Notes: generated by a model from the letters alone, not told the origin. Positions 22,901 through 56,970 are shown, counted from the stretch's first letter. The stretch: 64,000 bases of DNA from a virus (IMGVR_UViG_3300020147_000001:2724-66723), one strand, 5' to 3'. Program-made: numbers and translations.

Positions 22901-22940
22901 TTCCTCGTGTCTTTTCTCATCCCGGAGAAAAGTGGTTTGC

Positions 22941-23285
22941 TCACCAAAGATCGCGGTTTGCCGTGATCGTGAGCGTCATGGGCTCGAACCGCAGCGTTTC
23001 GGTCCAAACGTCGTACGACTTCCCTGTCACGTTGACGCTGCGAGCGACTTCGCGCGGACCGCCAAACGCGTTGGCGTTCCACGCCGACACGCGATTGCCG
23101 AGCTGACTGTCCATGAGCGAGACGCCCGTGAAGACCACCGGAACGAGGTTGACGAACTCGAGCCCGTCGTCGTCAACCTGAGCCCACTCGTCGGCGATCG
23201 AGCCAGACGCTGTGGCTGCGATGTTTACGTGTCCGAGCTCGGGTGGCTTGTCAGGTTTTTGGAAGTAGAGGGTTGCTGCGGCCAT
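22941..23285 (-). CDS. putative virion protein
   Basis: ORF in the structural operon. Confidence 0.6.
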   Translation of the reverse strand: MAAATLYFQKPDKPPELGHVNIAATASGSIADEWAQVDDDGLEFVNLVPVVFTGVSLMDSQLGNRVSAWNANAFGGPREVARSVNVTGKSYDVWTETLRFEPMTLTITANRDLW

Positions 23286-23573
23286 TTAGAGATTGCTCCG
23301 GTAGCGCGTGAGCACACCGTCATCTGTGCCAGCACGGATGACGCGAAAGTTGGGATCAGACGTGTCGTTGACCCACCAGTCGTAGGTTTCCTGCGCCTTC
23401 ATTGGGAAGCTGTAGACTGCAGAGGCTGCTGAGTCCGTGTCCCCGCCGAAGTGGATCCAGCAGTCGACGCTGGACACGAACGTTACCCAGCATCCACCGA
23501 AGGGAATGGTGGCGGAGCCGAGCACCGCCGCAAGCGTCGAGCTCGACGTGATATCGGTCTTGTAGACCGCCAT
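23286..23573 (-). CDS. putative virion protein
   Basis: ORF in the structural operon; start uncertain (23573 or 23636). Confidence 0.6.
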   Translation of the reverse strand: MAVYKTDITSSSTLAAVLGSATIPFGGCWVTFVSSVDCWIHFGGDTDSAASAVYSFPMKAQETYDWWVNDTSDPNFRVIRAGTDDGVLTRYRSNL

Positions 23574-23678
23574 CGGATGGCCCGAGCCGGCTGCATGCGG
23601 TGGGCGTTTTGCGATTGCTTGAGCTTGTCCGAGCACTTCAGCGAGTCGTTTCTCATCCCGGAGAAACTAGGCCGTACC

Positions 23679-24095
23679 TCACACGCTCCACGAGCCGATC
23701 ACCACACGCACATCGACGGCGCCGCCGCCCGAGTCGTAGTCAAAGACGGGGCGGACCCACTTCGGGAACCTGGTGAACGCAAGGGTCACTTCGTGCGTTC
23801 CAACTTCAGGGCTGGCATATGCCAGAACACCTGTCGCGGCAGTGTAGGTGATCTCAGTCGGCGCGACCGTGATGATCTCACCAGTGTTGAGCGTCGGCAA
23901 GATCGAGCTCGGATCGAGCGCGCTTGCGTCATCGTTCGTGCCGGTAAGCCGCAGCGCAGCCACGAGCGTCGCTGCATCCACCGATGCTGTCACCGTCAGC
24001 GTGAGCGACTGACAGTTAGATACCTGGACGGTTTGACCTGACACGTTCGCGGTGGACGCGACCAGGACGGTTTGACTCTTCAGAATATCGGTCAC
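23679..24095 (-). CDS. putative beta-rich virion protein
   Basis: 138-aa ORF coupled to the upstream gene. Confidence 0.65.
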   Translation of the reverse strand: MTDILKSQTVLVASTANVSGQTVQVSNCQSLTLTVTASVDAATLVAALRLTGTNDDASALDPSSILPTLNTGEIITVAPTEITYTAATGVLAYASPEVGTHEVTLAFTRFPKWVRPVFDYDSGGGAVDVRVVIGSWSV

Positions 24096-31177: not shown

Positions 31178-33852
31178 CGCTTGATCCTTTGCGGGGTAAC
31201 GTCCTCGTAGCTGATCGAAAACCCCTCGAGTTTCGGAGGCTGCAGGGTTGTGGCGTCGGGTGACCCGCTGATCACGAGCTCGGGCGCGATGCTGTTTGCC
31301 ATGGCAGGCCACGCGCGCGGAATCGTGAAGCCGACTCGGCTCATCTCCATCTGGTTGCCAGTGGGGCTGCTCGTGGGAATGACCCGTGTGCCAGCGCTGA
31401 TCGCCTGCGAGCGCAGCTCACAGGTGTAATTGGTCTCTTGCCAAGGCGCCGAGAACGAGAGGTTGATGTCGCGCCAGTGCTTCAGCGAGTAGGAACCGTT
31501 CACGCCGTAGAAGGGCTGAAAGCGCGCGGTCAGGCCTTCATAAGCGCCGAAATTGGCGATCTGATCGGCGATGAGGTCGCGTCTACCAGCGTACAGCATG
31601 AACATGCGCTGCAGTGACTGGTTGTACGTCGCAAGCGACGGCACCTCGCCTGGATGGTAGCTCGGTACGCGCACCATCCACGTGTCGGTCTTGACGTTGT
31701 AGACCCAGATCTTCCCGAAGACAGTTCCGGAGTTGTGCCGATACCGGATCCAGATCTCCTCGTTGGCGTTGTCGACGGCCATCCACGGCCACGTCGTGCT
31801 GATGCCGTTTGGACTGATGTCGCTGGACCAACTCTTGTTGGGCAACATGAACTGCGCATCGGAGTCGGGCCATCCCGTAGGATTGATGCGCCCGTCCGAA
31901 AGCTGGCGAACCGTACCTTCGCTGCTGATCGCAACGACGCCGCGGTTTGTGAGCGCGTACACGCTGTCGCGAAACACCACCGCGCAGTCGGGGTTCGTGA
32001 TGATGAGACTGGGGTCTACCGGGTCGATCACCCAGTCATATTCTTCGCCCACCGAGCCGCCGGCGCCGCTCAACCGGAAGAGCCCATCGCTGCAGAAAAA
32101 CCAGAGGCAGTCACGCGTCGCGATGATCTTGTAGATCTCACCCTGGCCGCAGAACGCGTAGTTCGAGGGCGGGCAGTTTTCCGGCTCGTTGTTCTCGCTC
32201 CACGCAAACCCGTTCTTCTGCTGGCTGCCTTCTTCGGTGTGAGCCGTTGCGTTGAGCTCCGGCAGGTACGGCGAGAAGTTTTGCCCGTTCGTCGCGCGCA
32301 GCGTGATCGGGCTGTTCGTGCGCATGCGGATCACAAGGCCGCCCGTGGGCACGAAGTTGGGATAGACGCCTGCAGGGTTTTCGGTCGTGATCGGCTCGAG
32401 GCCTACAGCCGCAACGTCGAGCTGCGTGTTGAGGTTCGAGGTGTTGCCGAAAAAGAGCTGCGAAACAAACGACTGCGGAGACTCTGTGGCAGACACGTTG
32501 AGCCCGTTGAGCTCGATCCGGTCGAGGACATCCACGCGCACGTTGCCGCTGTATGAGCTGTTGACAGCGCCCGTGATCGTAGTCGCTCCCACCGACACAA
32601 CGGTGTTGTTGGGCGTCACGAGCAAGCCGCTGTCGACGCGATAGACGTTGAAGGTCTGTCCAACAACAACGCCGTACGTGTTCGGGAGCCCCGTGACCGT
32701 AGGGCTACCGCTCGTCGCTGTTTGCCCAGTGGTCGTGTAGCGAATGCCGATGCCCTGGGTCAGCACGTAATAGCCCGCTGTGGCGAAAGGCATGAATCCC
32801 CAGTAGTAGGGGTTCAGAAGCGTGAACGTCGCCGGATCCCAACGGTTGGCATAGAAGGCGTGACCTCGAAAGGTCGCGCATGTTTTCGCTGGTGTTGGCG
32901 GGAGCGGGAGCGCTGACGCGCCCCCGACTGAGACGTTTGTCAGAAGCGCTTCACCGAGCGTCGCCGGCAGCGTGGTGTCTGACGAGAGGTTGAAATACGT
33001 TGCCCAGTTCGCCGCCCAGCGAACCGTTTTCGAGAGGTAGAAGCTGCTGCCGGTGCTGATCGGAAGGTATTTGTTGGAGACGCTGTCGTACCCAACGCTC
33101 TGCGCGCGCGTGCGATAGATATCGAGGTGGTGGCTGTAGTAACCGCTGCTTAGTGTGAGGTCGGCCTTTGTGATCCACTGCGAATGGACCTGCGGCAATG
33201 TCGTGCTGAGGTTTGCGTAGTCGTACGGAACAGCCGGAGGGCTGACGAGCTCATACCCATCCCTGTGCACCATGCGCAGAACGGACGTGGCCGAGAAGTG
33301 CTGGTTGGGGCCGAGGTACGCGGGGTCATCTGCCAAGCCGCTGAACGCGTTGCGGTCGTACAGGATCGTCTGGTAAACGCCGCAGTTTCGCGGTCCTTCC
33401 AGGCCGTTCATGATGCCATCGGCGTCTTCGAACACGTCGAACGCAAAGGACCGCACAGCGCCCGTGATGATCACGCGGTTGCGCGCGAACACGATGCCCG
33501 TGCGCGCGTCGTTCGTGATGTAGCTGTTCCACGGTGCGGGAATATCCCGCTTGAGCGTGATGTACCCGCTGAAGGATGTGGAGCATGTAACGCAGAGCTG
33601 CCACGTGCCGAGCGCGGTGTGCTCTACAAGGAAGATCGTGTACGGGCCTTCCGAGAGGGCGTAGATGCCGCCCACGAGGTTGCCGTTGAGGAAGTCGGTG
33701 TTCGCCAGCTCGAACTTTCGTACCGGCTCCAAGACGCCAAACGAGCGAATCGCACCGTTGATCGCGTAGGAGAACGCGCCCGGAGGGAACTGCCCGACCT
33801 TGTTCGGCTCGGTGATAAGGCCTTGCGGCTTCACCGCGATTTGATCGCTCAC
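31174..33852 (-). CDS. putative tail nozzle / tail tubular protein B-like
   Basis: 892 aa, beta-propeller-like (FRGHAFYAN, FAWSENNEPE, WVYNVKTDTW); follows the adaptor gene. Confidence 0.7.
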   Translation of the reverse strand: MSDQIAVKPQGLITEPNKVGQFPPGAFSYAINGAIRSFGVLEPVRKFELANTDFLNGNLVGGIYALSEGPYTIFLVEHTALGTWQLCVTCSTSFSGYITLKRDIPAPWNSYITNDARTGIVFARNRVIITGAVRSFAFDVFEDADGIMNGLEGPRNCGVYQTILYDRNAFSGLADDPAYLGPNQHFSATSVLRMVHRDGYELVSPPAVPYDYANLSTTLPQVHSQWITKADLTLSSGYYSHHLDIYRTRAQSVGYDSVSNKYLPISTGSSFYLSKTVRWAANWATYFNLSSDTTLPATLGEALLTNVSVGGASALPLPPTPAKTCATFRGHAFYANRWDPATFTLLNPYYWGFMPFATAGYYVLTQGIGIRYTTTGQTATSGSPTVTGLPNTYGVVVGQTFNVYRVDSGLLVTPNNTVVSVGATTITGAVNSSYSGNVRVDVLDRIELNGLNVSATESPQSFVSQLFFGNTSNLNTQLDVAAVGLEPITTENPAGVYPNFVPTGGLVIRMRTNSPITLRATNGQNFSPYLPELNATAHTEEGSQQKNGFAWSENNEPENCPPSNYAFCGQGEIYKIIATRDCLWFFCSDGLFRLSGAGGSVGEEYDWVIDPVDPSLIITNPDCAVVFRDSVYALTNRGVVAISSEGTVRQLSDGRINPTGWPDSDAQFMLPNKSWSSDISPNGISTTWPWMAVDNANEEIWIRYRHNSGTVFGKIWVYNVKTDTWMVRVPSYHPGEVPSLATYNQSLQRMFMLYAGRRDLIADQIANFGAYEGLTARFQPFYGVNGSYSLKHWRDINLSFSAPWQETNYTCELRSQAISAGTRVIPTSSPTGNQMEMSRVGFTIPRAWPAMANSIAPELVISGSPDATTLQPPKLEGFSISYEDVTPQRIKR

Positions 33853-34823
33853 CGGCCGATCCTCCAGCGTCGGAGTTCGGTCAGCGGCGCGCGGATCTTC
33901 CGCGGCTCTTCGCGCGTGCGGTTCGAGTACAGATTGTCGAAGCGTGCGAGGTCAGCTGTAACATCGCCGGCGAAGTTCGCAGCCTTTTGCTGGTAGCCGC
34001 GCTGAACCAATACCTTCGTGCTTGCAACGTCCACCACGCAGCGGTGGAAGTCCTCGGGCAGCATCGGCCAGTCGCTCTGACCGTACGCACGAACCCAGTC
34101 GCCTACCTGCACATCACGCAGCGTCGCAGCGCTGGTCACGGCCACCGTAAAGACGTTGCCGGAAATCGTGGCAATGCCGTTGCTCAGCGAGTGGTCGAAC
34201 CAGCCGCTCGGCTTCACCACGTCGAAGTTGACAGTGCCGGTCATCGCCACGGGCGATGCCAGCGACATGTCGAACGGAACAGCGGTCACCGTGATCGTAC
34301 GGTTGGCCACGTCCACCGAGCTCACCAAGCCGCGCGACGTTCCTGACACGTTGTTCTGACTCGGCATGAGCCGAGGCGGGCGCCGGTAGTAGGTGACGCG
34401 CAGCACGTAGCTGCTGTTGTCCGGCGTCGGCAAAAGAACGATGTCGTTGCCACGAAGAACGTATGCCTGCGGCTGCCCGAGCCCGTTGTAAGACGACTCG
34501 AAGAGATCGGCGTGTCCTTCATCAACCTTGTTCAGTCGAGCAAAGTTGATGTTGCTCACGTCAGAGATGGTTCCGAATCCAATCTCCAGCTTTCCGAGCA
34601 CCGTCATGTGTCGCTGGAGCCGATAGGTGGACTGGTTCGTCGCTACGCCGATGTACGTTTGCTGTTGCCAGGTTCCGTTGCGAAACCCGACGATCATGTC
34701 CTGAAACTTTGTGGTCAAAGCATCGGAGAGCTCGCGCAGGAGCACGGAGTCGGGGTAGTCGACCGCCGTGTTTTCAAGCAGCGTGTTCAGACGCAGCTGC
34801 TCCAGCATCTCCGTTGTGTTCAC
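33849..34823 (-). CDS. putative head-tail adaptor
   Basis: GQPQAYVLRGNDIVLLPTPD..LRVTYYRRP pattern of phage adaptors. Confidence 0.7.
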   Translation of the reverse strand: MNTTEMLEQLRLNTLLENTAVDYPDSVLLRELSDALTTKFQDMIVGFRNGTWQQQTYIGVATNQSTYRLQRHMTVLGKLEIGFGTISDVSNINFARLNKVDEGHADLFESSYNGLGQPQAYVLRGNDIVLLPTPDNSSYVLRVTYYRRPPRLMPSQNNVSGTSRGLVSSVDVANRTITVTAVPFDMSLASPVAMTGTVNFDVVKPSGWFDHSLSNGIATISGNVFTVAVTSAATLRDVQVGDWVRAYGQSDWPMLPEDFHRCVVDVASTKVLVQRGYQQKAANFAGDVTADLARFDNLYSNRTREEPRKIRAPLTELRRWRIGR

Positions 34824-36390: not shown

Positions 36391-36399
36391 GACGACTCC

Positions 36400-37835: not shown

Positions 37836-37883
37836 AAAAACAACCAGGCGCGCGCGGTGCAGACCGTGACCGCGCGCACCTGG
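37836..37883 (-). terminator. intrinsic terminator after the capsid gene
   Basis: ccaggtgcgcgcggt/accgcgcgcgcctgg stem followed by TTGTTTTT on the minus strand. Confidence 0.7.
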
Positions 37884-37895
37884 ATGAGCTTTGAA

Positions 37896-39218
37896 TTACG
37901 AGGCGAGAGCGACGCCGCCGTTGGCGGTGTTGTTCTGAATTCCCGTGATCAAGAAATTCCGATACGGCATCTCGAACACAGGAGCCTGGTTCGAGAAGAT
38001 GCGCAGCGACGCACCAGCGTTGCTCGGCATGTGCTGGAAGAATGCTTCCGCACCTCCGCCGATCGGACGCATGGTGAGGTCGGTGCTTCCGACGCGCCGG
38101 AAGTTGTCACCCGAGATGAAGAAGGCCTGGCCTTGCTTCGCGTACTGATAGACGACGACTTCCACCTGTCCGGCGGCAGTCTCGTAGATCAGCTGCGATG
38201 CACCCTGCCTCTTCACCTTGTCGGTGTTCCCGGTGTAGCGCTGCAGCGCGTTCGCCTCTTCAGCCATGTCGGCGAAGGTCGGCGCGCACACGAAGAGCTT
38301 GCCGCCGTTTTTCACGCCGTTGATGCTGACGGCTGCGGCCATCGCCATGATCTTCGCGCGGGACATTGCGCCGCCGGCGGAGAACGTCATGCAGCGCCAA
38401 GGCGCCACGGAGCTGGCGTCGATCCCGAAGATCGTGCCGGTGTTGTTGTAGATCGCCTCGAGGCCGAAGGCGCTCTTGGTGCGCCAGCCGAACGGCACGA
38501 TGCGGTCGTTGGCCGCGACGGTTGCAGCCGAAGACGCTTTGTACAAAGTTAGACGCGTCTGCGTGGTGCTCGGGCGTGACCGCACGATGACTTCCGTCTC
38601 ACGCACGGTAGTGCCGTCCGCTTGATAGACATCCACGCGCATGCCGGTGTTACCCGCGCCGCCGCTGGCTGCGATGATCCACAGGCCGGGGATCCACGAC
38701 GCTTCGGTGAGGTATACGACCTGCACCGCGCCAAGGTTCGCGCCGGAGACCGACCCGCCCACGACACCGATGTTCGAAGCGACAGCAGCCGAGGTGCCAG
38801 GCCCGTAGGCCAGCGCCAGCTCGCGGTACATCGCGGCGCCTTGCAGCATCGCCTGCACCGTCTGATCGAGCGCGGTCTTGTACGCGCCGCCCGAGGAACC
38901 GTTGCCGGTGCCATTGAGCGACTTGTAGATGGTGTCGTACGACACCACCGACTGCAGCATGATCGTCGCGCCGTCCAAGTTCGCGTTCAACACGGTGGAG
39001 TCCACCGGGGCGTTGAGCGCGAATGCACTGTTGTCGACGTTCGCGGTCTGACCGAGCTCGAGGCCGGTCAGAACGGGGAAGTTGTAGCCGAGACCGGGGC
39101 GGTTCTCGGAGGGAATGAAGTCACCAAAATCTGCGAGGGTGTGTTCGTCTGGCAGCGGGTCGATCCATCGACCATAGCGCTGCTTGAACATGCCCTGAAC
39201 TGAGGCAAACGATGCCAT
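37896..39218 (-). CDS. major capsid protein
   Basis: 440 aa, after portal and scaffold, followed by a terminator. Confidence 0.8.
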   Translation of the reverse strand: MASFASVQGMFKQRYGRWIDPLPDEHTLADFGDFIPSENRPGLGYNFPVLTGLELGQTANVDNSAFALNAPVDSTVLNANLDGATIMLQSVVSYDTIYKSLNGTGNGSSGGAYKTALDQTVQAMLQGAAMYRELALAYGPGTSAAVASNIGVVGGSVSGANLGAVQVVYLTEASWIPGLWIIAASGGAGNTGMRVDVYQADGTTVRETEVIVRSRPSTTQTRLTLYKASSAATVAANDRIVPFGWRTKSAFGLEAIYNNTGTIFGIDASSVAPWRCMTFSAGGAMSRAKIMAMAAAVSINGVKNGGKLFVCAPTFADMAEEANALQRYTGNTDKVKRQGASQLIYETAAGQVEVVVYQYAKQGQAFFISGDNFRRVGSTDLTMRPIGGGAEAFFQHMPSNAGASLRIFSNQAPVFEMPYRNFLITGIQNNTANGGVALAS

Positions 39219-39604
39219 TACACGAACTCCAAAACGTTAGGGGTGAGCCCTTCGCTTCGGCGTGCCGTGCGTACTGCGTTTGACTGAGTGCCGCTCTTGG
39301 CTGCGGAGTCCTACTTGGAGTCGGGCCGGTGGTTTTCCGTCGCCCTTGTCACTTCGGTTGCTGCGCGTACTTCCTAGAGGGGGTCAGCGACTACAGAGCA
39401 GGGTTCCTACGCAAGGATGTGAGACCTGATCTCGGTGATTTGCTTGGGTGCGACGGCCAGGGAAGGATAAGAAACCTGACCGTCGCTACCTCGAAGCCCG
39501 CGCCGGGATGAGCCGCGGAGAGCGTCTACTCCAGCCGTCATTTTTGTATGCTGGGGCACGTATGTCAACTGTAAGTTGATACAATTACATTTGTATACAC
39601 GTCG

Positions 39605-40891: not shown

Positions 40892-40928
40892 CAGTCAGTC
40901 TGTCTTTCCCATCCCGGGGAGAAGTCGT

Positions 40929-43223
40929 TTAGACGGGCGCCCCAGCTGGAGGCGTGCTCGGCTCAGGCAGCGGCGTGCCCGTCGCGTGGACCTGTCCACC
41001 CTGTCCGCCTTGCGCCTGGGCCTGGTCGCTCGGCATGGCTTGCGGGACCGCCGGCGGGGCCTGCTGGCCTGCAACCGGCTGGCCCCCACCACCTGCGGGG
41101 CCGCCGCCTGGAGTGGCACCTGGGCCACCAGGCGGCATGAGACTCGGGTTGTTGGGCCCGGTCGCGAGCTGGCCCGTCGCCATCATGAACTCGAACATCA
41201 TGTTGCCGCGCGGCGCCATCGGGTTCGGGTAGATCGGCGGTGGCGGCGGCAGTCCCACAAACCCGGCACTCACCGGATTCATCTGCAGGTACTGCTGCAT
41301 GTGGTCCTTCATATGCAGTCGGATCCTTTGGATCGCCTGCATGTCCGGCTTTTCCGACGCCATCAGCTGCTCAAGCATGCTGAAGTGCATCGGGTAGTGC
41401 TTGAACGGGTCGTCCGCCTCGTTCACGTAGATCGGCGCTTCGCCCGTCACAAGGAGCTCGTTTTCCTTGCGGATGAGCTGCTCGCAGCTGTTTTCGGTCT
41501 TGAGCCAGCGCGTCGTATTGCCCGTGACCACCATCTCGTAGGCGGCAGCTCGATCCTCCGGCGGCATCTCACGCAGCGCGGTGATGAGCTGCAAGCGGCC
41601 CGCGGTGGACTGCATGAGCGGCGAGACCTGTTCGATCTCGATGCGCTGGATTCCGCTGAGGTCTTCCTTGGTGAACTCTGCGACGTACGAGCGCTGCTCG
41701 ATGCCGGCGATGTCGACGAGGAACGGCGTTTCGCCGTAGCGTGTGATGAGGTCTAATAGGATCTGCGCGCCTTCGATGCGGAACTTGCGCGCGGCGTCTT
41801 GGCGGAACGACTGGTAGCGAATGGCGATGCTGTCGAGCAGCGCATTCATCTCCCCCGATCGGACGTTTGGATCTGGGTCGCCGCGACTCGCAGCGTTCTG
41901 ACCCGATACTGTGTCCAGCATCTTGTGCAGATAGCTTTTGAGGTCCGGGAGCGTTGCTGGAACAGCAGCAAGCTGCACTGCCCGCGGCATCTGAGCATTC
42001 GGAGGAACATAGAACGCAGTACCTTGCGCAATCGCATCGATTGTTACCTCTGTGCCCTTCTCGATCGCGATGCTCTGCCGACCAAAGGTCGCGTAGTTCT
42101 GCATCTCGTCGCTGTTCACCTGGTTCAGCGCTTGCTGAATCGCGATGAGGTCCCACGCGTCGGCGTAGCCGAAAGTGCTTTCGATAAACTTGCCGCTCTG
42201 AATGACAGCGATCGGCAAGCCGCGCTTACGCGGGCTCGGGCCGTCCCAGAGGATGATGTCGTTGACCAGCATCACGTAGCGGCCTTCGGGCACCGCGGCG
42301 CAGCGCCGGTGGTAGAAGTGCTTGACGGTGAGCTGGTCTTTCGAGGTGTAGTACATCTCCTCGAGACGAAAGAGCGTGCCGAAGTCGTACTGGTCGAAGT
42401 CAGTGCGCGCAGCCAAGAGCTGCTCTTTGTGCTGCGGGAAGTTGGCGATCAGGTTCCAGCGGTTATCGAGCTCGCGTACAAGGCGCCACTGGTGCTCGCC
42501 GGAGATGCGCGTTTCTTGAACGAGCGTCCACGGGTAGACGAGCGACACGATGGGCTCGCCGCTTTTTTCGATCGTGTAGTGCTCGGTCGGCGTGCCGTCC
42601 TCGAGCGTCACCGGGCGCGGCACTTTCATGTCGTCGCCGCCCAAAAAATCCCAGCGGTAGTGCGTACCGGCGAGCCCAAACACGCCGTCGCCCTCGGCTG
42701 CTTCCATGTCGAGGGGCGCGGAGTAGCGCTTGTACAGCGCGTTGATGATCTTGTCGGTGAGCAGCGACTTCGCGATGGAGCGGTGGTCGCTGTTGTTCAC
42801 GAGCGCACGAAACGCCGCTGGTTCTCCGAGAGCCAGCGACGTTTGGTGCCGGATGTACGGGCGAATGAGATTGAGATGGAAGCGAATCAGCTCCAGCTCA
42901 TTGCCCGTAAATCCGATGCTTTGTGTAGCAAAGTCCCGAAGGTCATCAGGTGTCAAGCCATGGTGTGCGGCATAGGCCACCACCCACATGGGGAGCACGC
43001 CGCGGTTACGCGCGCTCTCGAAGTAGTTGTGCTCCTTGGCGCAGATCTCCGAGATGAAGTCGGGACCCGTCTTGCGCGCCCAATACACGGTCGCCGGGTC
43101 GATCTCCGGCTCGTCGACGGCCGCGAGCGGGTCGTCTTCAACAGCGAGTGGATCGGCAAGCGGATCGGCGAACGGTTCTGAGAAGGCGTCGAGTGGTTGT
43201 TCTTCTACTTCTTGCGGGAGCAC
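40929..43223 (-). CDS. portal protein
   Basis: 764 aa; NLIRPYI and LDTVSGQNAASRG..SG motifs; Pro/Gln tail; synteny. Confidence 0.85.
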   Translation of the reverse strand: MLPQEVEEQPLDAFSEPFADPLADPLAVEDDPLAAVDEPEIDPATVYWARKTGPDFISEICAKEHNYFESARNRGVLPMWVVAYAAHHGLTPDDLRDFATQSIGFTGNELELIRFHLNLIRPYIRHQTSLALGEPAAFRALVNNSDHRSIAKSLLTDKIINALYKRYSAPLDMEAAEGDGVFGLAGTHYRWDFLGGDDMKVPRPVTLEDGTPTEHYTIEKSGEPIVSLVYPWTLVQETRISGEHQWRLVRELDNRWNLIANFPQHKEQLLAARTDFDQYDFGTLFRLEEMYYTSKDQLTVKHFYHRRCAAVPEGRYVMLVNDIILWDGPSPRKRGLPIAVIQSGKFIESTFGYADAWDLIAIQQALNQVNSDEMQNYATFGRQSIAIEKGTEVTIDAIAQGTAFYVPPNAQMPRAVQLAAVPATLPDLKSYLHKMLDTVSGQNAASRGDPDPNVRSGEMNALLDSIAIRYQSFRQDAARKFRIEGAQILLDLITRYGETPFLVDIAGIEQRSYVAEFTKEDLSGIQRIEIEQVSPLMQSTAGRLQLITALREMPPEDRAAAYEMVVTGNTTRWLKTENSCEQLIRKENELLVTGEAPIYVNEADDPFKHYPMHFSMLEQLMASEKPDMQAIQRIRLHMKDHMQQYLQMNPVSAGFVGLPPPPPIYPNPMAPRGNMMFEFMMATGQLATGPNNPSLMPPGGPGATPGGGPAGGGGQPVAGQQAPPAVPQAMPSDQAQAQGGQGGQVHATGTPLPEPSTPPAGAPV

Positions 43224-43255
43224 CTCAGGAGGCCTTGCTCATCCCGGAGCAGGTT

Positions 43256-43795: not shown

Positions 43796-43828
43796 CTTGG
43801 TCTGTCTCTTTCCCATCCCGGGCAAAGC

Positions 43829-44407
43829 TCAAAAGTCGACGAGATCGTGCGCGTTGTCGTCAGCGATCACCGCGACGCGCTCGACGTTGCTGCGCAGCAC
43901 TCCGTCTACAGCCTTTGCTTGGCCGCCGTCCGGGCCAGCCATCCGCGCAATCTTCGCGGGGTCAATGCCGTCGAACATGCTGAAGTCAGGCTTCTCGATC
44001 AGCTTGCCGTCGAGCAAGATCGGCTCGCCCTTCTCCGCAAGCTCGATGAGGTCCTTGCCCGACAGGAAGGGATCGTGTGCCGGCGGTTCAGCTGTCTTGA
44101 GGTCGCCGATGCGCGCGCTGTGCTCGCGCTTGACTGCGAACGCGCTCGGGTTCGTGCAGAGGTGCTGGATGTGGTCGAAGTCGACCACCCAGCAACCTCC
44201 CGGGTTCTCCCCTTGAGGTTCCGAACCGCGGACAGCACGGCTGCTTGCGAGCACGTAGACGCCCATGCGCAATGGGTCGATGTAGTCCCAGCGGCGATTG
44301 CCGAGCTCAACCGATGCGGGATCGAGCCCGAAGGGGTTCGCTTTCAGCAGCTCACGGCGGCTGTCGATGAACTTCTGGCCGATAGCGCGTAGCTCGTCGT
44401 CGGTCAC
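43829..44407 (-). CDS. hypothetical late protein
   Basis: 192-aa coupled ORF. Confidence 0.65.
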   Translation of the reverse strand: MTDDELRAIGQKFIDSRRELLKANPFGLDPASVELGNRRWDYIDPLRMGVYVLASSRAVRGSEPQGENPGGCWVVDFDHIQHLCTNPSAFAVKREHSARIGDLKTAEPPAHDPFLSGKDLIELAEKGEPILLDGKLIEKPDFSMFDGIDPAKIARMAGPDGGQAKAVDGVLRSNVERVAVIADDNAHDLVDF

Positions 44408-44748
44408 TCGGTCTCCTTGAGGAGCTCATCGAGGTCGACTTCTTCGATCTTCTCGGGCAGCGCGGGGATCTTGGGCTTGTCAGCTCTCACCCGCTTCGGC
44501 GCAAAATACGACAGCGCTTCCTCGCGCGACTTCACCACGATGGTGCCGTCCGGGTAGGTGATGACGGCATCGCCTGCGCGCACGTTGGTGAGCTGCTTTT
44601 CGAGGCCCGTCATCGTCACGCCGACAACCAGTGTGTCTTCGTGATGGCTTGCCGGGGCGACGGCGATATGGGGGGTCTTGGTTGGGCTCTCGTAGAAGAC
44701 GAGATCGACTTCTGCGGGCGGGGGAACAATCTCTACGTACTTGGCCAC
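44404..44748 (-). CDS. hypothetical late protein
   Basis: 114-aa ORF downstream of a late hairpin motif. Confidence 0.6.
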   Translation of the reverse strand: MAKYVEIVPPPAEVDLVFYESPTKTPHIAVAPASHHEDTLVVGVTMTGLEKQLTNVRAGDAVITYPDGTIVVKSREEALSYFAPKRVRADKPKIPALPEKIEEVDLDELLKETE

Positions 44749-44792
44749 CAGGTTTGCATCGTTCTCATCCCGGAGAATCTAGCTTTGGTGTT

Positions 44793-44869
44793 TGGCTGTG
44801 GAGGCTGGATTCGAACCAGCGGACTCCGACTTAACAGGCCGGCGCTCGTACCGCACGAGCAACTCCACA
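44793..44869 (-). tRNA. tRNA-Asn (GUU)
   Basis: tgtggag/ctccaca acceptor stem, ccggc-CTGTTAA-gtcgg anticodon arm, GGTTCGAATCC T arm, G73-CCA; D-loop atypical. Confidence 0.85.
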
Positions 44870-44877
44870 ATGCGGGT

Positions 44878-45084: not shown

Positions 45085-45643
45085 TCGGAGGTCTCAGGTG
45101 TGGGGTCGGGAAGCGCTTTGTAGGCCTGCTCTACGGCCATCAGGGCCGAACAGAGGCGCTCGGCTGGCCACTCGGGTTGGACCAAGGCCACGGCGACTGC
45201 CGTGTCGATGCCCGCGTGCTCAGGCCGGGCAAGCGTGATGCGGATGCCGTAGCCGTGCGGGTAGTGGGCGAAGGTCCAACGCGCTTGGGCTGGGTCCATA
45301 AAATCCTACGGCAAGATACATGACCCGGGCTACTTGCGCATCTGGCCGCCGTACGCCAGCGACAGCTTCGTCGTCTCTTTGATGCAGTCGTTGACCCGGT
45401 GGGTCGTCTCGACGAACGCCCGCTCATGCTTGGACACCTCACCCCGGAGCTCGTCCCGGTCGCGCAGGGTCTCCGCCCGGAGCTTCGAAAGCTCGTCCCG
45501 GATGTTGGCGAGCTCGGCGAGCGCGCGCTTGCCGGCGAGCGCCTCTTCGATCTCAGGGGTCGGCCACAAGGCCCGGATGAGATACACGAGAACCGTGGAT
45601 ATGCCGCCAAGGGCTGCGACCCACACCAAAGCTTCTGAAAACG

Positions 45644-47470
45644 TCACCGTCTGCCTCCGTTGAACATGCGCAACCTGCCCCGCTGGCCGATGCCATGGGC
45701 GGCCTTTTGGGCCTCCTCCAGCGCCAGCTCATGGGCAGGCTTCGGGACCCAGGGCAGCCGGTCGATGACCGTCGCGCCCTCGGGAAAACTCACCATGATG
45801 TGCACCGGCGGGTGCGGCCGTGCGTTGGTCGACAGCTCGACGCGTCGCACCATGTAGACAAGCGCCGCCAGTGCGTCGAAGTGGCCGTACACCTTGTGCT
45901 CGGCGAGCTTGCCGCGTTTGTCGCGCTTGCCCGCGGCCACGTGATCGATCACCGGGCCCGCGTCGGGCGCGAACCACATTCGGCCTTCGGCGACCCAATT
46001 GCGCAGATTGCGCAGCATCGTCACGAGCTCTTCTTTGCTCGTCGCCAGAAACTCGAGGCCGTAGTGGTCGTCGATGTCGCGGATGAGCTGCTTGTCCACG
46101 TCGGAGACGCGTGCGTGCGGGTTCACGTGGAACCCTTGCCGGTCGTAGTAGGGGACTATGGCTCCCGGGATGGGCTGGGTGATGAACTGCCCCGGGAAGC
46201 GCTCTTGCGTTGGCCGCTCGCGCTCGGCCGTCTGCGCCATCTTGAAGAGCTCGGGCGCTAGGCTCTCGTACTTGTCCCCGCGTAGAAGATCTCGCCATCC
46301 GAGATGTACGCCATCGTGCTGTAACGGAATGCGCCGCATACGCACATCCGGCCAACGGCCCCAAAGCACGTACTCTCGTGCTGCGCAGACCGCGCTGACC
46401 TCCATGCTACCGGCGTTACTCTTGGCCCAGCTGTCGAGGATGAGGAGTCTGTCGGTGTCGAAGTCATACTCGCCCCAGACGAGGGCGAAGAGGTGGGTTT
46501 GGCCGGGGTCGGCGGCGGTGAAGCCGTAGGCGTATTTGGGTCTTTCGAAGCGGCGGACATGCTGTTCTTTGTTGAACTCGGGGACCGCTTTGAGCGTGGG
46601 GTCGCCGGCGATGACGTTGAAGTATTCGCGCTCGCAGTTCGGATCGCCACGGCCGCCCGCCATGCTGATCCAGTGGTCTTTTTCACGCCGCGTGAGCCGC
46701 GTGTTGTCCTCGATCGTCACCTCGCTGAATGCCCCGCGCCGCTTGGCGTCGGGCATGATCTTCAGCTCCCAGTCGGTATCGATGTCCTCGGGCGCCGAGG
46801 TCTCGATCACCATGCGCGCCCACGGGCGGCCCTGGTACTGGTGGATCAGAACGTTGCGAACCGTGTACTCGAGGTTCTCGATGAACGCGGCTTCCGAGAT
46901 GAAGTCAAAATCGTTGGCTTGGCCCCGTAAAGCATCCGGGTTTTTGTCGATGCCAGAGAGGGCCAATCGCATGCCGCCGGTTGGCCCGTCCTTGGGCCAG
47001 TACAGACCAGCCGGCAGCACGCCGCGCTTGCCGTGGTAGACGGGCGAGCAGCTGTCAGGCGCCGTGCGGAAGCACTCGGGCATGACCGAACCGACGATCT
47101 CGTCGATGTTTTTCTGGAAGGCGCTGGTGAGGCGCATGACGGCGGGGCGCTTGTACTTCGCGTAGAAGTCGACCCCGAGCATGTGCGCGAGCCAAAGGAT
47201 CAGCGACGTTTTGCCGAAGCGCTTGCCGCCGGCGATCGCGTAAATCAGCGGAATGGAGCCGATCTCATCGGCCTGTTCCAGCGGGTCGAGCTGCTTCCAG
47301 GCGTAAACCGCGTCGCATAGGCGGACCTGGCCCTCGTGCATGAGAATGCGGAGGTCGCCGGTCTCCCAGGCGAGCGTCATGAGCTCGTCGTCGGACAGCC
47401 CGACGAGGTCTTCCTGCTGGAGCAGCTTCTGGTAGACGAGCTCGTCGTCTAGGCCGTCGTCAGGTTCCAA
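45644..47470 (-). CDS. terL: terminase large subunit
   Basis: Walker A GGKRFGKT, Walker B FISEAAF, ETS coupling motif, nuclease AADPG and HFDALAALVY. Confidence 0.9.
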   Translation of the reverse strand: MEPDDGLDDELVYQKLLQQEDLVGLSDDELMTLAWETGDLRILMHEGQVRLCDAVYAWKQLDPLEQADEIGSIPLIYAIAGGKRFGKTSLILWLAHMLGVDFYAKYKRPAVMRLTSAFQKNIDEIVGSVMPECFRTAPDSCSPVYHGKRGVLPAGLYWPKDGPTGGMRLALSGIDKNPDALRGQANDFDFISEAAFIENLEYTVRNVLIHQYQGRPWARMVIETSAPEDIDTDWELKIMPDAKRRGAFSEVTIEDNTRLTRREKDHWISMAGGRGDPNCEREYFNVIAGDPTLKAVPEFNKEQHVRRFERPKYAYGFTAADPGQTHLFALVWGEYDFDTDRLLILDSWAKSNAGSMEVSAVCAAREYVLWGRWPDVRMRRIPLQHDGVHLGWRDLLRGDKYESLAPELFKMAQTAERERPTQERFPGQFITQPIPGAIVPYYDRQGFHVNPHARVSDVDKQLIRDIDDHYGLEFLATSKEELVTMLRNLRNWVAEGRMWFAPDAGPVIDHVAAGKRDKRGKLAEHKVYGHFDALAALVYMVRRVELSTNARPHPPVHIMVSFPEGATVIDRLPWVPKPAHELALEEAQKAAHGIGQRGRLRMFNGGRR

Positions 47471-47816
47471 CCTCCGTCACAATCTCATCCCGGAGCTTGT
47501 GTGGTTGGTTGTGTCGCGTCGCGATGGTGTGACGCGCAGTCTGCAAAAGCGCTGCCAAGGTGCGGCTGCACTCGGCGTAGAACGCGTTGCGCGGTCGCGC
47601 GTAGCTCACCGTCGCGCTCAGGTCCACGTCCGCTTCGACCTGGATAAGTCGAAGCTTGAGCTCGTGGTTGCCCTTGCCCGGCACCGCGACAAAGCTCCAC
47701 GGAAACCTGTGGCCGCGGTCATCAAACACCTGGTTGGCAATCCCGACCGCGGTCGGCTGAGTCAGTGCGATCATGTTACGCAATCCTTGTAGCACGGGGT
47801 TGATACTACGGGACAT
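47460..47816 (-). CDS. hypothetical protein upstream of terL
   Basis: 118-aa coupled ORF; no clear TerS motif. Confidence 0.55.
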   Translation of the reverse strand: MSRSINPVLQGLRNMIALTQPTAVGIANQVFDDRGHRFPWSFVAVPGKGNHELKLRLIQVEADVDLSATVSYARPRNAFYAECSRTLAALLQTARHTIATRHNQPHKLRDEIVTEVGT

Positions 47817-49582: not shown

Positions 49583-49894
49583 CGGATGGGGTGGTCCTTT
49601 GGGTTAGTTGGAAGGCTCGAAGTCTTCCCCGTTCGAGCCGAGACGGGTGGTAGGCGGTGACTTCCGAAAACTACCGCTCGGGGCCGCAGCCGAAGTCTTG
49701 TTAGGGGGCGCCGCCCATGCGGCGCATGTCGGCACAGGCGGATTCAGAAAGCGCACGTTGCAAGCGCTTGATGAGCTTTTCGGTCTTGGACGGTGTCAGC
49801 TCGACAAACCGCCCGTTCGATTCGATGACAATGCGCGGTTGTGCATCGGGATTGCGCGGCAAAGTCCACGCGACTAGGGGTGTTTTGACCATGT

Positions 49895-52435: not shown

Positions 52436-52783
52436 TCACGCGTACCTGATGTTCGGGTTGCGGTTGAAGCGGTCGGGACGCTTGAAGCCGCGGGCTTCTT
52501 GCTCGCGCCACCACACCTCGTCGGGGACCTCGTCAGCGAAGTCCTTGCTGGTGGGCTCGAGCTGCTTGGGCGGCTCGATAAAGTACTCGTACATGGCACG
52601 TGCGCGGCCCGGGTTGGGCCGCTGCCGGCGCCGGATGAGGCGCTCCTCGCGGAGCTTGTACGTGAGGATGTAGACGCCCGTCACGCCGACGCCGGCGGCC
52701 TCGGCGATCTCCGGACAGGTGAGGGGAGTGGGGGACGAACGGATCACTTCCAGGACCCGATGCTTGACGGTCTGCTCATTCAT
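52436..52783 (-). CDS. winged-HTH DNA-binding protein
   Basis: PLTCPEIAEAAGV..YKLREERLIRR; AAAGGACACGC leader. Confidence 0.7.
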   Translation of the reverse strand: MNEQTVKHRVLEVIRSSPTPLTCPEIAEAAGVGVTGVYILTYKLREERLIRRRQRPNPGRARAMYEYFIEPPKQLEPTSKDFADEVPDEVWWREQEARGFKRPDRFNRNPNIRYA

Positions 52784-52830
52784 CTTCGCGTGTCCTTTCT
52801 CGTGGTTACAGGTCGAAACTCGAAACAGCT

Positions 52831-53472
52831 TCAATCGAAAAAGCCGCCGCTCCCGCCGCTTCCGCCACCTGAGTCACTGCTGAAGTCACTGCTGGAGTCG
52901 CTGCCGCCCGAGCCCCAGTCACCGCTGGCACCGGCGCCGCCGAACTTGCCACCGCTGCCTGAAAAGTCAGTGCTGGTGGGAGCCGCTGGCGCGGCTGAAG
53001 GGCCGATGTGGAACACGTTCTGCGGCGACGAGCCGTCGCTGAACACGGCGTGCTTGCGGTTGTCGAGCTCCGGAATGTCCAGCGGGATGTGGGTGGTGGT
53101 GCCGGTCGGGTCGTCGATGCCGGGCATGTAGATGAGTGTGCGGCCCACGTCGTCCGACTTCACGAACGTGGCTTTGGATGGGTACGGCACGTCGATGACG
53201 TGCACGCGCCGGCGCTGTTCAGCGTCGACGAGCGTACGCAGGAGATCCGAATACTCGGCGCGCAGCGCGGTCAACTGGCTCTTCAGAAAGAAGCATCGCC
53301 CGAACTGCAGCCAGTGCGTCTCGATCATCGTCTCCCAGACGCGCATGCCGCGGCTGTAGCGATCCCTGAGCACCGAGCTCTCGTTGCGAAGCATCACCTC
53401 GTACTCCGGGCCGACACCGATCTGCTGGCCCCAGAACAGGGGGCACAGGCGTTGCTTGGTACGTTGAAACAT
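52831..53472 (-). CDS. hypothetical protein with a Gly/Ser tail
   Basis: C-terminal FSGSGGKFGGAGASGDW. Confidence 0.55.
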   Translation of the reverse strand: MFQRTKQRLCPLFWGQQIGVGPEYEVMLRNESSVLRDRYSRGMRVWETMIETHWLQFGRCFFLKSQLTALRAEYSDLLRTLVDAEQRRRVHVIDVPYPSKATFVKSDDVGRTLIYMPGIDDPTGTTTHIPLDIPELDNRKHAVFSDGSSPQNVFHIGPSAAPAAPTSTDFSGSGGKFGGAGASGDWGSGGSDSSSDFSSDSGGGSGGSGGFFD

Positions 53473-55031
53473 GGAAGTCCTTGCGTGGATGTAGGGGTAG
53501 AAACTCGAAACTACATCAAGCAGCTTTTCAGCGCGGCCACGGTCACAGCGATGACCGTGGCCCAAAAGAAAAGGACGACGCCAAGCGCGTCCCAGCCCTT
53601 GAAAGGCCCGCGTTCGATACGATCGTCGTCGTCGTTCACGCGCTCTCCAGTGGAGGAATAGGTTTGAGATGCCATGCCCTGCAGATGTCGCAGCGCTTGC
53701 ACTCGAAGTTGTTTTCGCCAAGCTCAGCAGCGAGCTTTTGGCGGTTCTCGGAGAAGAGCGCGTCATACGCGGTCGCGTAGCGAAGCTCTTGGCACGGGGT
53801 TTGTTGGTCGCGAGTTGACATAACAAAGATTATCGGCTGAACGGTGGCGGGTTGTCGTGCTCGAATCGGTACACGTCGTTCCGAGCGTGGATGGCCTCGT
53901 CGGTCGTGCTGGCTGACAGCATCGCGTCCAAGTGCGGCCACACCTCCATCAGCCACAGCGCGATGTCGAGTGCTACGGCCTGCTCTGTCGTCCAGGTGTC
54001 GTTTGCACGCCGCAACGTACCAACCACCCTCTTCGCTTCGTCGAGCGTCATCGGCCCATCACCATGAAGGCTCCGAACACCAACGCGATGAGGCAGGTCC
54101 ACATAAGCAGCCTGTCGTCCGACGCATTCTGTGCGCGGCGCGCGTCCATCTCCGCGTTCCAGCGCTCGGCGGTCCACCCCTCAGCCTTGAGAGCTGCCCA
54201 CTGCTCGGTCGTCGGCACATCACCACGCTTCATGTTGTCTTCGATGCTCATGTTCCCTCCGGTTTCGGGTTCTCGGCTAGCCAGTCAGCCAAGCGAAGCG
54301 CTGGGCCGTGGTCGGCGTAGCAGCCAATCGTCAACACCTCGCGCGCGCCCTCCTCGAACTTCGCGTACCACTCCAGCTTGGCCTCTCGCTGGGTCGCGCC
54401 TTCTTGGAGCTGCCGCATGACGTCAACGCAGGCGTCGTTGCTCTCGCGCAGCTCGGCGTTCTGCGCCGTGAGCTCGACGACCGCAGCCGCGCTCTTCTGC
54501 AGCTCTTCGCCAAGCAATGCATTTGCCGTGCGCAGGTCAGCCAGCTCCTTCTTCATCCTGAGCATGTGCGGCAGCCCCATCAACCGTTGGTTCTCCGCGC
54601 GCAGGCGATGCACCTCGGCATCGGCTTTGGCGAGCAAGGTCTTTATATACTCCACTGAGCGCTCGAGGCTCATCGGCGACCCCTTGCCTGCTCCGCCTTC
54701 TCGGTCGCGCGCAGCTCTTCCCACTCGCGCCTGAGCTCGTAGTTCTGCGCGTGCTTTTGCACTTCCTCTTCGGAAAGCGAAACGCCGAACTTGGTCTTGA
54801 GCCACAGCGTGAACCGATTAGCCATTCAGTCCTCCTCTTCGTGTTTGGAGAAGTCAACGCCTTCTGCTTTTGCAAACGCGCAAATCATCAGCGTGAGCGC
54901 CACGATCCCTTCAAGCAGGCCGACCGCCACCCAGTCGCGCACGCCGGCGATGCCCATCATGTTGCAAATGAGACCGCAGCACACAACGCCTTGGAGCCAG
55001 AGCGCGCCCTGCACCGCTGCCCGCCACAGGT

Positions 55032-55406
55032 TCATGAACGCACACTTTCTTTCAGTTCGCCCAACGCGAGCAGCTCAGCCACTTTGTCGAGGTCGTTGTG
55101 CGGGCCCAGCACGAGCTGGCCCTTGTAGGTGAAGTGCTCGCGGCACTCGTGTTCTTCGAAAGCCAAAAACGCTTTGAACGCACACTGCACGAGCTCACTC
55201 GCGGTCATGTGCGGAGAAAGCAGATGTTTGCCGCCCTTCATGATGCGCGATCCGCGCAGCGGAGGCGGAAACGGAATCGTCGCGATCACCTGCAAGTACC
55301 AGTGCGTTGTGCCCGGCGCATCGCTCACGGGAGCGCAGATGAGCTCGTAGCCGTGCTTGTACTTGATGTTCGCGAGCACGCTCGCGATCTCACCGACGCT
55401 CATCAT
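55032..55406 (-). CDS. conserved-looking phage protein of unknown function
   Basis: LSPHMTASELVQCAFKA...EEHECREHFTYKG...GPH. Confidence 0.7.
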   Translation of the reverse strand: MMSVGEIASVLANIKYKHGYELICAPVSDAPGTTHWYLQVIATIPFPPPLRGSRIMKGGKHLLSPHMTASELVQCAFKAFLAFEEHECREHFTYKGQLVLGPHNDLDKVAELLALGELKESVRS

Positions 55407-56970
55407 GGGATCACCAAAAACCGACGCATGTTGGAGCCCTTCTGCGCGGCCTCCTCGTCAAGGTACACTGACCCACTCACCCACTTGGCCCCAGGGACCA
55501 CGGGGTGATCGGGGTCGACGAGCACCCACTCGACCGAGTGCATCGGAGATGACCTTGCAAGCACGACAGGCTGGCACACATACCCAGAATCACGGGTCTT
55601 CGTCAGGAACGTGTGCCAGCGCTTGGCCTCGAGCCTGTCGCAAAACACAGCAACCTGCTCCACATAACCCTTCTTCTGAAGAGCGTCTGGCTTGTAGAAC
55701 GCGTAGTACCGCGGCTCTTCCTTGCCCCCAAGCTCGCACACCTCGCACTTGGGGATCTGAAAGAGCACGGTCATGAGCCGCTTGCACTTCGGGCAAGAAG
55801 TCATCGCAAACGCCCTTCCCGCTGCATGACAGCATAACGCGCGCGCAGCGGCGCAGGCTGGAGATCCGCCAGCGCAAGACCAAACTGCTTGGCCATGGCC
55901 ACGACAACATCCATGGACCCCTGCATCCGAAACAGTGAATCGAGGAGTGTCGTAGCAAGGTCTTTGCCACGGCCATCTCTGATGAGCGCCTGGCTGGCCT
56001 CGACGCTCACGTGATGCGCAACAGCAAACGCGTCCAAGACGCGCTCGCGAAACGCGTCTTCCAGCGCGCGCTTGGTTTCGGTCACAACATCGAAATCTTT
56101 TTGGTCAAGCATCGGTCCGTCTCCTTCTGTCGCTGTAGCCATCGACGCAGCAAGGTCGCCGCTTCGACTCGGATGGGCTTGCCGCCGATGGCGCGCATGT
56201 AGGTTGCGTATCCGATGCCCGAATGCAGCCAGGGCTTCGAATAGTAGAGCTCGGACGGCATCGCCTCGATCTCATCAGGGGTCAGCACCTCCCAGGCCTT
56301 GGCCGGCTTCACAAAACGCCTCCGAGCCGCCCGAGCATCGCGAAAAAGCCGACAATGCCTGCGACGAACGCAAACCAGGCTTTGCCCGCCTGCGATGTGT
56401 CAGAAAACTTCGACACGTCGTGCACGCCCCATCCGATAACGACAAGCGAAAGCAAAAGCACTCCCATCTCTAGGTTCATGTGTCCTCGTCTTCCTCGTCT
56501 TCCTCGTCAAACAATCGACACACCCTACGCAGCTCGTGCACGAACATCCACTCGGCACCCGCAAACATCGCGGCATACACGAACCCACCAACTTCATTGG
56601 CGATGAGTGGCCCGGCCATCCCTACCGCAATCCAAAACGCTGTTTTCACGGGCGCGACCCTTTCTCTAAACAACCGTGGTGCACGAAGCCGTCATCCCGG
56701 ACCGCGCCTCGTGCACCACGCCCTACAACCCTACTCTTCGGCCTTGGGGGGTTTGACCGGCATAGGGTCGAGCTGAATATCCTGCGCCTCCGACATGCGT
56801 TTGATCTGCTCCAGCGCCTTGTGCATACGCTGCGTCGCAAGCGAAATCAAAAGCGCGTAGTCCTCTGCGCTCGCGTTCACAAGGCAGCCTGCGCCCTCAA
56901 AGAGCTGTCGTATCTTCTTGTCTCGAAAGTCAGCCACGTTCGCCCCTCTTTCCCGTTGCTCGTGTTCTAG

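Follow-up and report, generated by a model that had tools for sequence, protein, structure and literature searches.

Late genes of an uncultured soil phage carry, shortly before their starts, copies of a small hairpin with an invariant CGGGAU loop, and the leader of the major capsid gene carries the complement of that loop. We describe both in a window of 64,000 nucleotides (nt), which comprises bases 2724-66723 of a 66,723-base-pair (bp) virus record (IMGVR_UViG_3300020147_000001) with terminal repeats. The phage has a G+C content of 62.7%, and the DNA runs that contain its sequence are soil metagenomes. Family scans identify it as a podophage of the SU10/GP4 kind. The following virion genes, from the Gp80 fibre to the large terminase, all lie on the minus strand.

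22484-22900, minus strand: gp80-like fibre gene (Pfam Gp80, E 3.5e-36)
33849-34823, minus strand: SU10 adaptor (family scan)
37896-39218, minus strand: major capsid protein gene, 84-90% identical in relatives
39605-40891, minus strand: scaffold gene (family scan)
40929-43223, minus strand: portal gene (family scan)
45644-47470, minus strand: large terminase (TerL) gene (family scan)

The initial annotation had pointed to eight places in the window, and each proves to be a minus-strand hairpin of the form stem-C-CGGGAU-G-stem. They are given here as H1 to H8, with distances measured from the loop end to the start codon and gene products in amino acids (aa).

22911..22932, minus strand: H1, CUUUUCUC-CGGGAU-GAGAAAAG; 18 nt from the ATG of the gp80-like fibre gene; -8.2 kcal/mol, z -2.26
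23648..23667, minus strand: H2, GUUUCUC-CGGGAU-GAGAAAC; 18 nt ahead of the GTG of a 116-aa gene (23286-23636)
40904..40924, minus strand: H3, CUUCUCCC-CGGGAU-GGGAAAG, one bulge; 19 nt ahead of the scaffold ATG
43233..43253, minus strand: H4, CCUGCUC-CGGGAU-GAGCAAGG, one bulge; 17 nt ahead of the portal GTG
43808..43827, minus strand: H5, CUUUGCC-CGGGAU-GGGAAAG, one G.G mismatch; 19 nt ahead of the ATG of a 179-aa gene
44762..44777, minus strand: H6, UUCUC-CGGGAU-GAGAA; 18 nt ahead of the GTG of a 114-aa gene (44404-44748)
47478..47501, minus strand: H7, CACAAGCUC-CGGGAU-GAGAUUGUG, one G.A mismatch; 16 nt ahead of the TerL TTG
56675..56720, minus strand: H8, stem of about 19 bp topped by GUC/GAC, CGGGAU loop as in the others; then GGUUGUUU

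Perfect stems measure 8, 7, 4, 5, 2, 5, 3 and 3 bp from H1 to H8, and most extend beyond one mismatch or bulge. Singly, H1 to H7 are weak folds (-5.6 to -8.2 kcal/mol, z +0.7 to -2.3). H8 is the sole strong one (-32.4 kcal/mol, z -4.29); it looks like a terminator, is seen in this genome and in none of its relatives, and the start codon downstream of this eighth site (56700) is uncertain. The other seven sit, as had been claimed, just upstream of minus-strand late-gene starts, with 16-19 nt between the loop end and the starts of the gp80-like fibre, 116-aa, scaffold, portal, 179-aa, 114-aa and TerL genes. The H3 loop lies 12 nt past the portal stop codon, H7 overlaps the final codons of a mechanical 118-aa open reading frame (ORF), and the 179-aa gene downstream of H5 is kept in all relatives.

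Enrichment over shuffled sequence depends on how the motif is defined. The bare hexamer, with 40 copies against 27.9 +/- 5.3 in shuffles (1 of 100 shuffles reaches 40), is barely enriched, occurs on both strands (22 minus, 18 plus) and is not informative. The closed form CCGGGATG occurs 12 times against 1.99 +/- 1.24, a count reached by none of 100 shuffles; its eight minus-strand copies are exactly the eight hairpins, and its four plus-strand copies form no stem longer than 2 bp. The exact 12-mer CTCCGGGATGAG is confined to the minus strand, with five copies. At 45438-45503 (minus strand), a 105-aa gene contains a cluster of three sequences that differ from it by 1-2 mismatches; these seem to be a by-product of Leu-Arg-Asp/Gly-Glu coding repeats rather than hairpins.

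Conservation and gene context of the hairpins

Searches with the portal and terminase returned four related viral contigs, plus small fragments identical to one of them (G002). With the window genome as G000, the relatives are G001 (63.6 kb), G002 (75.0 kb), G003 (74.5 kb) and a fragment, G004, and their identity to the window phage is 66-75% for TerL and 78-80% for the portal. Hairpin copies on the gene strand number 5, 3, 4 and 3 in G001 to G004, and the orthologous junctions that carry one are those before TerL, a gene of about 190 aa, the portal, the scaffold and the gp80-like gene. The idea of a coordinated late-gene element is supported: the hairpin is strand-specific and, in the four relatives, recurs at the same orthologous junctions. 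A TerL profile, used in metagenome and viral scans, found the same clade again, plus two relatives at 46% TerL identity, one of them a complete 41-kb genome (G056); neither has the hairpin. Cultured phages gave no close match: with 7.9 kb as query, blastn aligned no more than a short conserved stretch, in six phage records, and tblastn with the portal gave a single match at 25% identity.

An ungapped alignment of the 23 distinct copies from the five genomes confirms that the apex is invariant while the stems differ. C-CGGGAT-G is fixed in 23/23 copies, and the CT/AG flanks are kept in at least 90%. Across a nine-pair helix, 75.8% of cells are paired against 60.2 +/- 2.3 in shuffled alignments, and the covariation score is 0.379 against 0.145; neither value was reached in 500 shuffles, and sliding the partners gave scores of 0.06-0.19. 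Double-sided changes occur in eight of the nine pairs. A covariance model recovered all 23 copies together with three loop variants (CGGGAUA, CGGGAA and CGGGA), from which we take CGGGA to be the fixed part of the loop. The information content falls within 16 nt around the loop, neither flank having another conserved position, which fits a pairing core and its stem. On these comparative grounds, the hairpin is real and selected.

The element is also confined to this clade. A scan with the 16-nt motif returned 62 stretches; of 50 unrelated viral records examined, 49 had one copy of the 12-mer and the remaining one had two, on opposite strands. Rfam models, at E up to 1, matched nothing at the hairpins or the capsid leader, the sole matches being two tRNAs, two sub-threshold YrlA hits and two at chance level. 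No larger conserved structure surrounds the hairpins at the TerL and portal junctions.

In all five genomes the hairpins are oriented as the genes, with 13-20 nt from loop to start codon (15 nt for the G001 portal, whose start was re-read by eye). At 18 of the 23 sites, a mechanical ORF rule places the end of an ORF 8-25 nt upstream of the loop. The genes behind the hairpins lack a ribosome-binding site of the usual kind: a spaced GGAG, GAGG or AGGA (Shine-Dalgarno) precedes 0/7 hairpin genes of the window genome and 14/24 of its other late genes (Fisher p 0.0087), and five of the seven start with GTG or TTG. The relatives' hairpin genes look alike in these respects, judged by eye. One further junction stands apart.

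44793-44869, minus strand: tRNA-Asn(GTT), CCA end 15 nt before H6; same arrangement in G002 and G003

In these three genomes the hairpin lies 5-15 nt past the CCA end, so it stands there without a translated upstream gene and would be near a processed 5' end.

Several simple roles for the motif letters were considered and dropped. An AUG in the loop does not serve as a start codon, because its frame to the gene shifts with the 13-20 nt spacing; UGA in the motif does not serve as the stop of the upstream gene, because only mechanical ORFs in other frames end there; and the loop GGGA is too far from the start for a Shine-Dalgarno. Recombinase inversion sites were dropped as well, recombinase families being absent from the family scans of the ORFs. 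One soil metatranscriptome contains 42% of the sampled phage words, with thin and patchy contig cover; a contig at 40546-41252 spans H3, and such contigs cannot show ends, strand or level.

The capsid-gene leader and its complementary loop

By its sequence features, the major capsid gene is a transcription unit of its own, with a promoter-like match, a 386-nt leader and a terminator-like hairpin.

39540..39568, minus strand: sigma-70-like promoter match, TTGACA-17-AAAAAT, 10/12; evidence limited to the consensus, such matches in the region numbering 3 where 3.0 are expected
39219..39604, minus strand: capsid-gene leader, 386 nt; 5' part variable save for the anti-motif, 3' part of about 210 nt highly conserved in five genomes
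39498..39518, minus strand: anti-loop hairpin, CCGCG-[GCUCAUCCCGG]-CGCGG; loop with CUCAUCCCGG, the reverse complement of CCGGGAUGAG; position kept in 5/5 genomes
37836..37883, minus strand: strong terminator-like hairpin past the capsid stop, CCAGGUGCGCGCGGU...ACCGCGCGCGCCUGG then UUGUUUUU

The capsid transcript would begin at the TTGACA-17-AAAAAT match, about 15 nt ahead of the anti-loop hairpin. In an alignment of the five leaders, CATCCCGG is the lone conserved block in a poorly conserved 5' half. It is the reverse complement of the hairpin core and accounts for one plus-strand motif match per genome. CAUCCCGG is found in the capsid-gene leader of 5/5 genomes, 292-316 nt upstream of the start codon, and is the sole 8-nt invariant block within a 60-nt window. 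The chance of meeting this 8-mer in a 386-nt leader is about 0.011 (2113 of 200000 shuffles), and 0.0007 copies of the 10-mer would be expected. A scan with a conserved block of the leader returned 48 loci, of which only the four known relatives were real.

Local folding places CAUCCCGG within a loop of 11-15 nt in four of the five genomes. The closing stems differ: CCGCG/CGCGG in G000, GCCGCG/CGCGGC in G001, and GCCUACG/CGUAGGC in both G002 and G003. Within each genome, the leader is complementary to its own 3-8 hairpins over 8-13 bp, loop placement being known from folding only. Each leader matches its own targets over at least 10 nt, and the predicted duplexes, at -19 to -26 kcal/mol, compare with -4 to -12 kcal/mol for the hairpins.

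The leaders differ in which part of the target they would cover. The G000 leader, through CUCAUCCCGG, matches the loop and 3' arm of its targets; those of G001-G003, through CAUCCCGGAG, match the 5' arm and loop; in G004, leader and target pair over 13-14 positions, one G.U included. The upper 5' arm of the targets varies in 3/8 G000 copies and in 0/18 of the others (Fisher p 0.02), and this arm, variable in G000 alone, is the part that the G000 leader leaves uncovered. Furthermore, two A-to-G changes in the 3' arm of G000 targets still form G.U with the leader U, and all three loop variants (CGGGAA, CGGGA and CGGGAUA) retain CUCCGGGA, the complement of UCCCGGAG.

Two other features of this transcript may be noted in their own right. 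In the conserved 3' part of the leader (39219-39430, minus strand, about 210 nt), RNAalifold predicts several helices, with the UUGGAGU ribosome site paired in the final one, and double changes occur in 17 of 68 predicted pairs; on its own, this part could constitute a structured leader. Right past the capsid stop, at 37877-37888 (minus strand), CUCAUCCAGG is one base off the leader's CUCAUCCCGG and forms part of the terminator stem, a near-match that is probably due to chance.

Proposed pairing between messages and its alternatives

The complementary copy in the capsid leader, missed by the initial annotation, changes the most likely mechanism. The capsid leader and the hairpins are each read from the minus strand; we infer that these RNAs pair through their loops, and we consider the evidence evenly poised on whether such pairing ties the capsid-gene leader to the other morphogenesis messages. 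The hairpin would act as RNA, within the brief leaders between cistrons that precede five to eight late genes for virion assembly. A capsid message that would be separately transcribed carries in its leader the complement of the hairpin apex, CUC-CGGGAU-GAG, and a kissing (loop-loop) interaction of 8-13 bp would form between the hairpin and the anti-loop near the 5' end of that leader. Output of the terminase, portal, scaffold, roughly 190-aa and fibre proteins would thereby be coupled to the abundance of the capsid transcript. Since the hairpin genes have no usable Shine-Dalgarno and often start with GUG or UUG, the pairing would act on translation initiation or on leader processing, for example by opening the hairpin or by making an RNase III site in the loop-loop helix. 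A more specific version, in which the capsid leader is a trans-acting riboregulator whose CAUCCCGG loop kisses the hairpins and so licenses translation or guides processing, is possible and we put it forward tentatively. Whether the effect would be activation or repression is a guess.

Several observations weigh against this pairing. Over 207 helix cells, G.U wobbles number 7 and A.C 15, so the sense strand is not favoured as the folded one; the antisense fold is the more stable in 14 of 23 copies and the sense fold in eight, with one tie (p 0.19). On the leader side, the G004 stem is imperfect and its anti-motif is partly closed by a small local stem, the leader hairpins fold no better than shuffles (z +0.03 to -1.4), and RNAalifold, applied to the entire leader, gives part of the anti-motif another partner. 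For co-variation of leader with targets there is a single contrast, G000 against the rest, among five genomes with four distinct leader stems. At 15-21 nt from the start codon, the target motif is distinct from the ribosome-binding site, which leaves no obvious effect on translation, and one anti-loop would be required to serve five to eight targets. The leader copy could also be a decayed inverted hairpin unit, retained for some other reason.

Among the alternatives, an operator for a phage RNA-binding protein, timing or activating translation of the late genes that have no Shine-Dalgarno, is unlikely. Mu Com on mom mRNA and the coat protein on the MS2 operator are the systems to which it can be likened. 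The invariant apex, free stems, fixed orientation, tight spacing to the start and absent Shine-Dalgarno would all suit such a protein, and there is a candidate binder: a 99-aa zinc-ribbon protein (62430-62729, minus strand) with a conserved CxxC...CPxC followed by NRxxRR...RK, present in 4/4 complete motif-bearing genomes and absent from the complete, motif-less G056. That co-occurrence covers very few genomes, and G056 is much smaller with many genes fewer. Neither a family match (Pfam at E up to 1) nor a PDB match by sequence came up for the candidate, and its AlphaFold model is of low confidence (mean predicted local distance difference test, pLDDT, 64.6). A protein that reads the loop would not need the loop's complement elsewhere, and the exact motif complement in the capsid leader is left unexplained; RNA loop-to-loop pairing is the simplest account of it. 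In itself, the basic zinc-ribbon protein with its arginine-rich helix is clade-restricted, found nowhere else in the viral collection.

A DNA-level element is quite improbable. It would be either an N4-type hairpin (cruciform) promoter, as the initial annotation had entertained, or a 12-bp target of a DNA-binding late regulator, functional whichever way it is oriented, as L5 stoperator-like roadblocks are. The promoter form does not fare well here: the loop is 6 nt and not 3, no position 13-32 nt past the loop start exceeds 0.33 bit, leaving no conserved start base or promoter element, and a start 8-11 nt past the loop would give GUG/UUG genes leaders of 5-12 nt with no Shine-Dalgarno. No RNA polymerase or sigma-factor families were found among the ORFs scanned, and a six-frame search with PF00940 (T7-like RNA polymerase) had no match, a weak negative because its control was silent too. 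What recommends a DNA-level element is that its stems are AT-rich in a 62% GC genome that encodes SSB, that the wobble test does not favour a sense RNA, that a double-stranded site would account for the opposite-orientation copy near the capsid promoter, and that N4 early promoters likewise have a conserved GC-rich centre with stem bases that merely pair, in the passages of PMC4496689 drawn on here. A double-stranded site, however, needs neither covarying arms nor a second, differently built hairpin, and the leader copy differs from the others in having an 11-15 nt loop and a stem of its own; here again, RNA-RNA pairing is the simplest account.

A passive intercistronic structure with no trans partner, whether an mRNA stabiliser, an insulator or a repeat spread by recombination, is very unlikely: it would suit hairpins directly past stop codons (18/23 by the mechanical ORF rule) and past a tRNA, in a genome that holds other start-associated repeats, but it has no need of an invariant loop and top stem, which are kept in 26 copies from genomes 20-35% diverged in protein, nor does it explain the complementary leader copy, and the hairpins are thermodynamically weak. 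A host CsrA/RsmA-type site, through which that protein would regulate late messages or be titrated by them, was likewise raised in the initial annotation and is scarcely credible, for although in 23/23 copies a C-G pair closes a hexaloop whose positions 3-5 are GGA, CGGGA is kept in the three variants, the stems are short and weak, and CGGGAUG is one base from the CsrB repeat CAGGA(U/A/C)G, in which the sole variable loop position also varies (PMC7652899, in the portion used here), the first loop base is C in 26/26 copies, the second is invariant where the consensus in that portion leaves it free, the second GGA at the start region is irregular, the leader copy is unexplained, and a PF02599 search of six frames of the phage found no CsrA gene.

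The riboregulator version, if true, would mean that the stoichiometry of virion parts is set by an mRNA-to-mRNA circuit and not by promoters or proteins. Phage late-gene control is usually attributed to promoters, sigma-like factors and antiterminators. In this clade of uncultured soil podophages, five orthologous morphogenesis genes are marked by one hairpin instead of a ribosome-binding site, and the late gene with the highest expression retains the mirror sequence in its leader. Pairing of the two, if it occurs, would create a post-transcriptional circuit that ties terminase, portal, scaffold and fibre output to the capsid message. The literature searched described no such principle for tailed phages, and a search by the motif letters returned unrelated primer and siRNA matches only. 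Because the parts are short (a 12-nt core, 40-nt hairpins), a direct test with synthetic RNAs or reporters is feasible without the host.

Other elements in the genome

Two further start-associated repeats occur in the window. One, AAAGGACACGCT, is found at eight early or middle genes, 1-4 nt upstream of the ATG; there is also a copy at 57602 (plus strand), the ninth, which adjoins no start, and the repeat is absent from the relatives.

1458, 2442, 2836, 4036, 14760 and 15568, plus strand: copies of AAAGGACACGCT
57352 and 52798, minus strand: copies of AAAGGACACGCT

The other is seen in G000 only, where four consecutive small genes (28, 294, 639 and 929, plus strand) open with GGCTGAGCC-ATG after GGAG or GAAAG.

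A Ro60-like protein is encoded at 57879-59576 (plus strand), with TROVE and vWA domains and the PHROG label 'RNA-binding protein'; it is 39-48% identical in G001-G003. Downstream of its gene lie two matches to YrlA, a Y-RNA-like family, at 59824-59960 and 60081-60224 (plus strand), scoring 39.5 and 49.9 bits against a gathering score of 69, with tRNA-like T-arm sequence nearby (about 59725-59745, plus strand). At 16598-16837 (plus strand) lies the gene for a cysteine-rich protein of 79 aa with a basic tail, 53-65% identical in G001-G003 and without a family match; the gene usually adjoins that for SSB. Two overlapping genes for conserved membrane proteins (62872-63330 and 63290-63637, minus strand; identified by eye) may form a spanin-like pair, one product having a signal-peptide-like N-terminus ending in cysteine and the other an N-terminal membrane segment and a coiled coil.

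The phage also carries host-like accessory genes: a flavin amine oxidase (7335-8735, minus strand, E 1e-74), TerD (17347-17925, plus strand) and TerC (18018-18569, plus strand). The flavin amine oxidase and TerC are common to G002 and G003. As a clue to the host, the amine-oxidase gene was searched for in genome contigs, where it had no relative, and an atlas look-up gave mixed phyla.

Comparison with known systems

RNA loops that meet complementary sequence, and hairpins that govern phage late genes, both have precedents. The c4 antisense RNA of phages P1 and P7 has loops complementary to sites upstream of a gene, with which they pair; Mu Com, which has a zinc finger, acts at a hairpin to activate late-gene translation; and TAR-TAR* consists of two six-base loops that pair completely. 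To our knowledge, none of the three has the leader of a structural gene facing multiple morphogenesis-gene hairpins.

The start-associated sequence (SAS) of Cluster K mycobacteriophages is a 13-bp asymmetric repeat with AGGAG, lying 3-7 bp before the start of non-structural genes; its function is unknown, with a role in translation suspected (PMC3203893). The phage hairpin resembles it, as far as the cited passages describe it, in being a clade-specific short repeat of one orientation, in small gaps directly before many starts. It differs in that its core has no AGGAG, lies 13-20 nt from the start and precedes virion genes whose ribosome site is missing. The extended form (ESAS) has conserved half-sites and a variable spacer with no compensatory changes, and its authors read it as DNA sites (PMC3203893, same passages). 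In the phage hairpin, by contrast, the centre is conserved and the arms covary.

The early promoters of N4, three in number, place the centre of a 3-nt loop at -11, have a fixed +1 and require the T7-like virion RNA polymerase (PMC4496689, in part). The phage hairpins share with these a conserved GC-rich centre and upper stem, a variable paired lower stem, few copies and one orientation. Unlike them, they have a 6-nt loop, precede late genes and show no conserved downstream base, and no such polymerase was found among the scanned ORFs.

For CsrA, ligand selection by SELEX gave RUACARGGAUGU, in which ACA is 100% conserved; the A is contacted in ANGGAN hexaloops, and in glgC a CsrA hairpin lies just upstream of the ribosome site (PMC7652899, in part). 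Compared with the sites described there, the phage element likewise has a C-G-closed hexaloop with GGA at positions 3-5, short weak stems and many copies. It departs from them in having C in place of the conserved A, a fixed second base and no second start-region site, in a phage whose six frames hold no CsrA match.

A close likeness is to RNAIII of Staphylococcus aureus, whose C-rich hairpin loops pair with G-rich loops or ribosome sites of the rot, coa and spa mRNAs, forming loop-loop helices of few base pairs that can stack coaxially and be cut by RNase III (PMC2837412, in the passages used). The putative regulator here differs in being the leader of a phage structural-gene mRNA. Its targets would be intercistronic, 15-21 nt before the start, and not the ribosome-binding site, and they are without a Shine-Dalgarno, whereas the RNAIII targets treated in those passages have strong ones. 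The arrangement itself is shared: a single RNA with an unpaired C-rich (UCCC-type) loop stands opposite several related messages, each with a GGGA-type hairpin loop near its 5' end.

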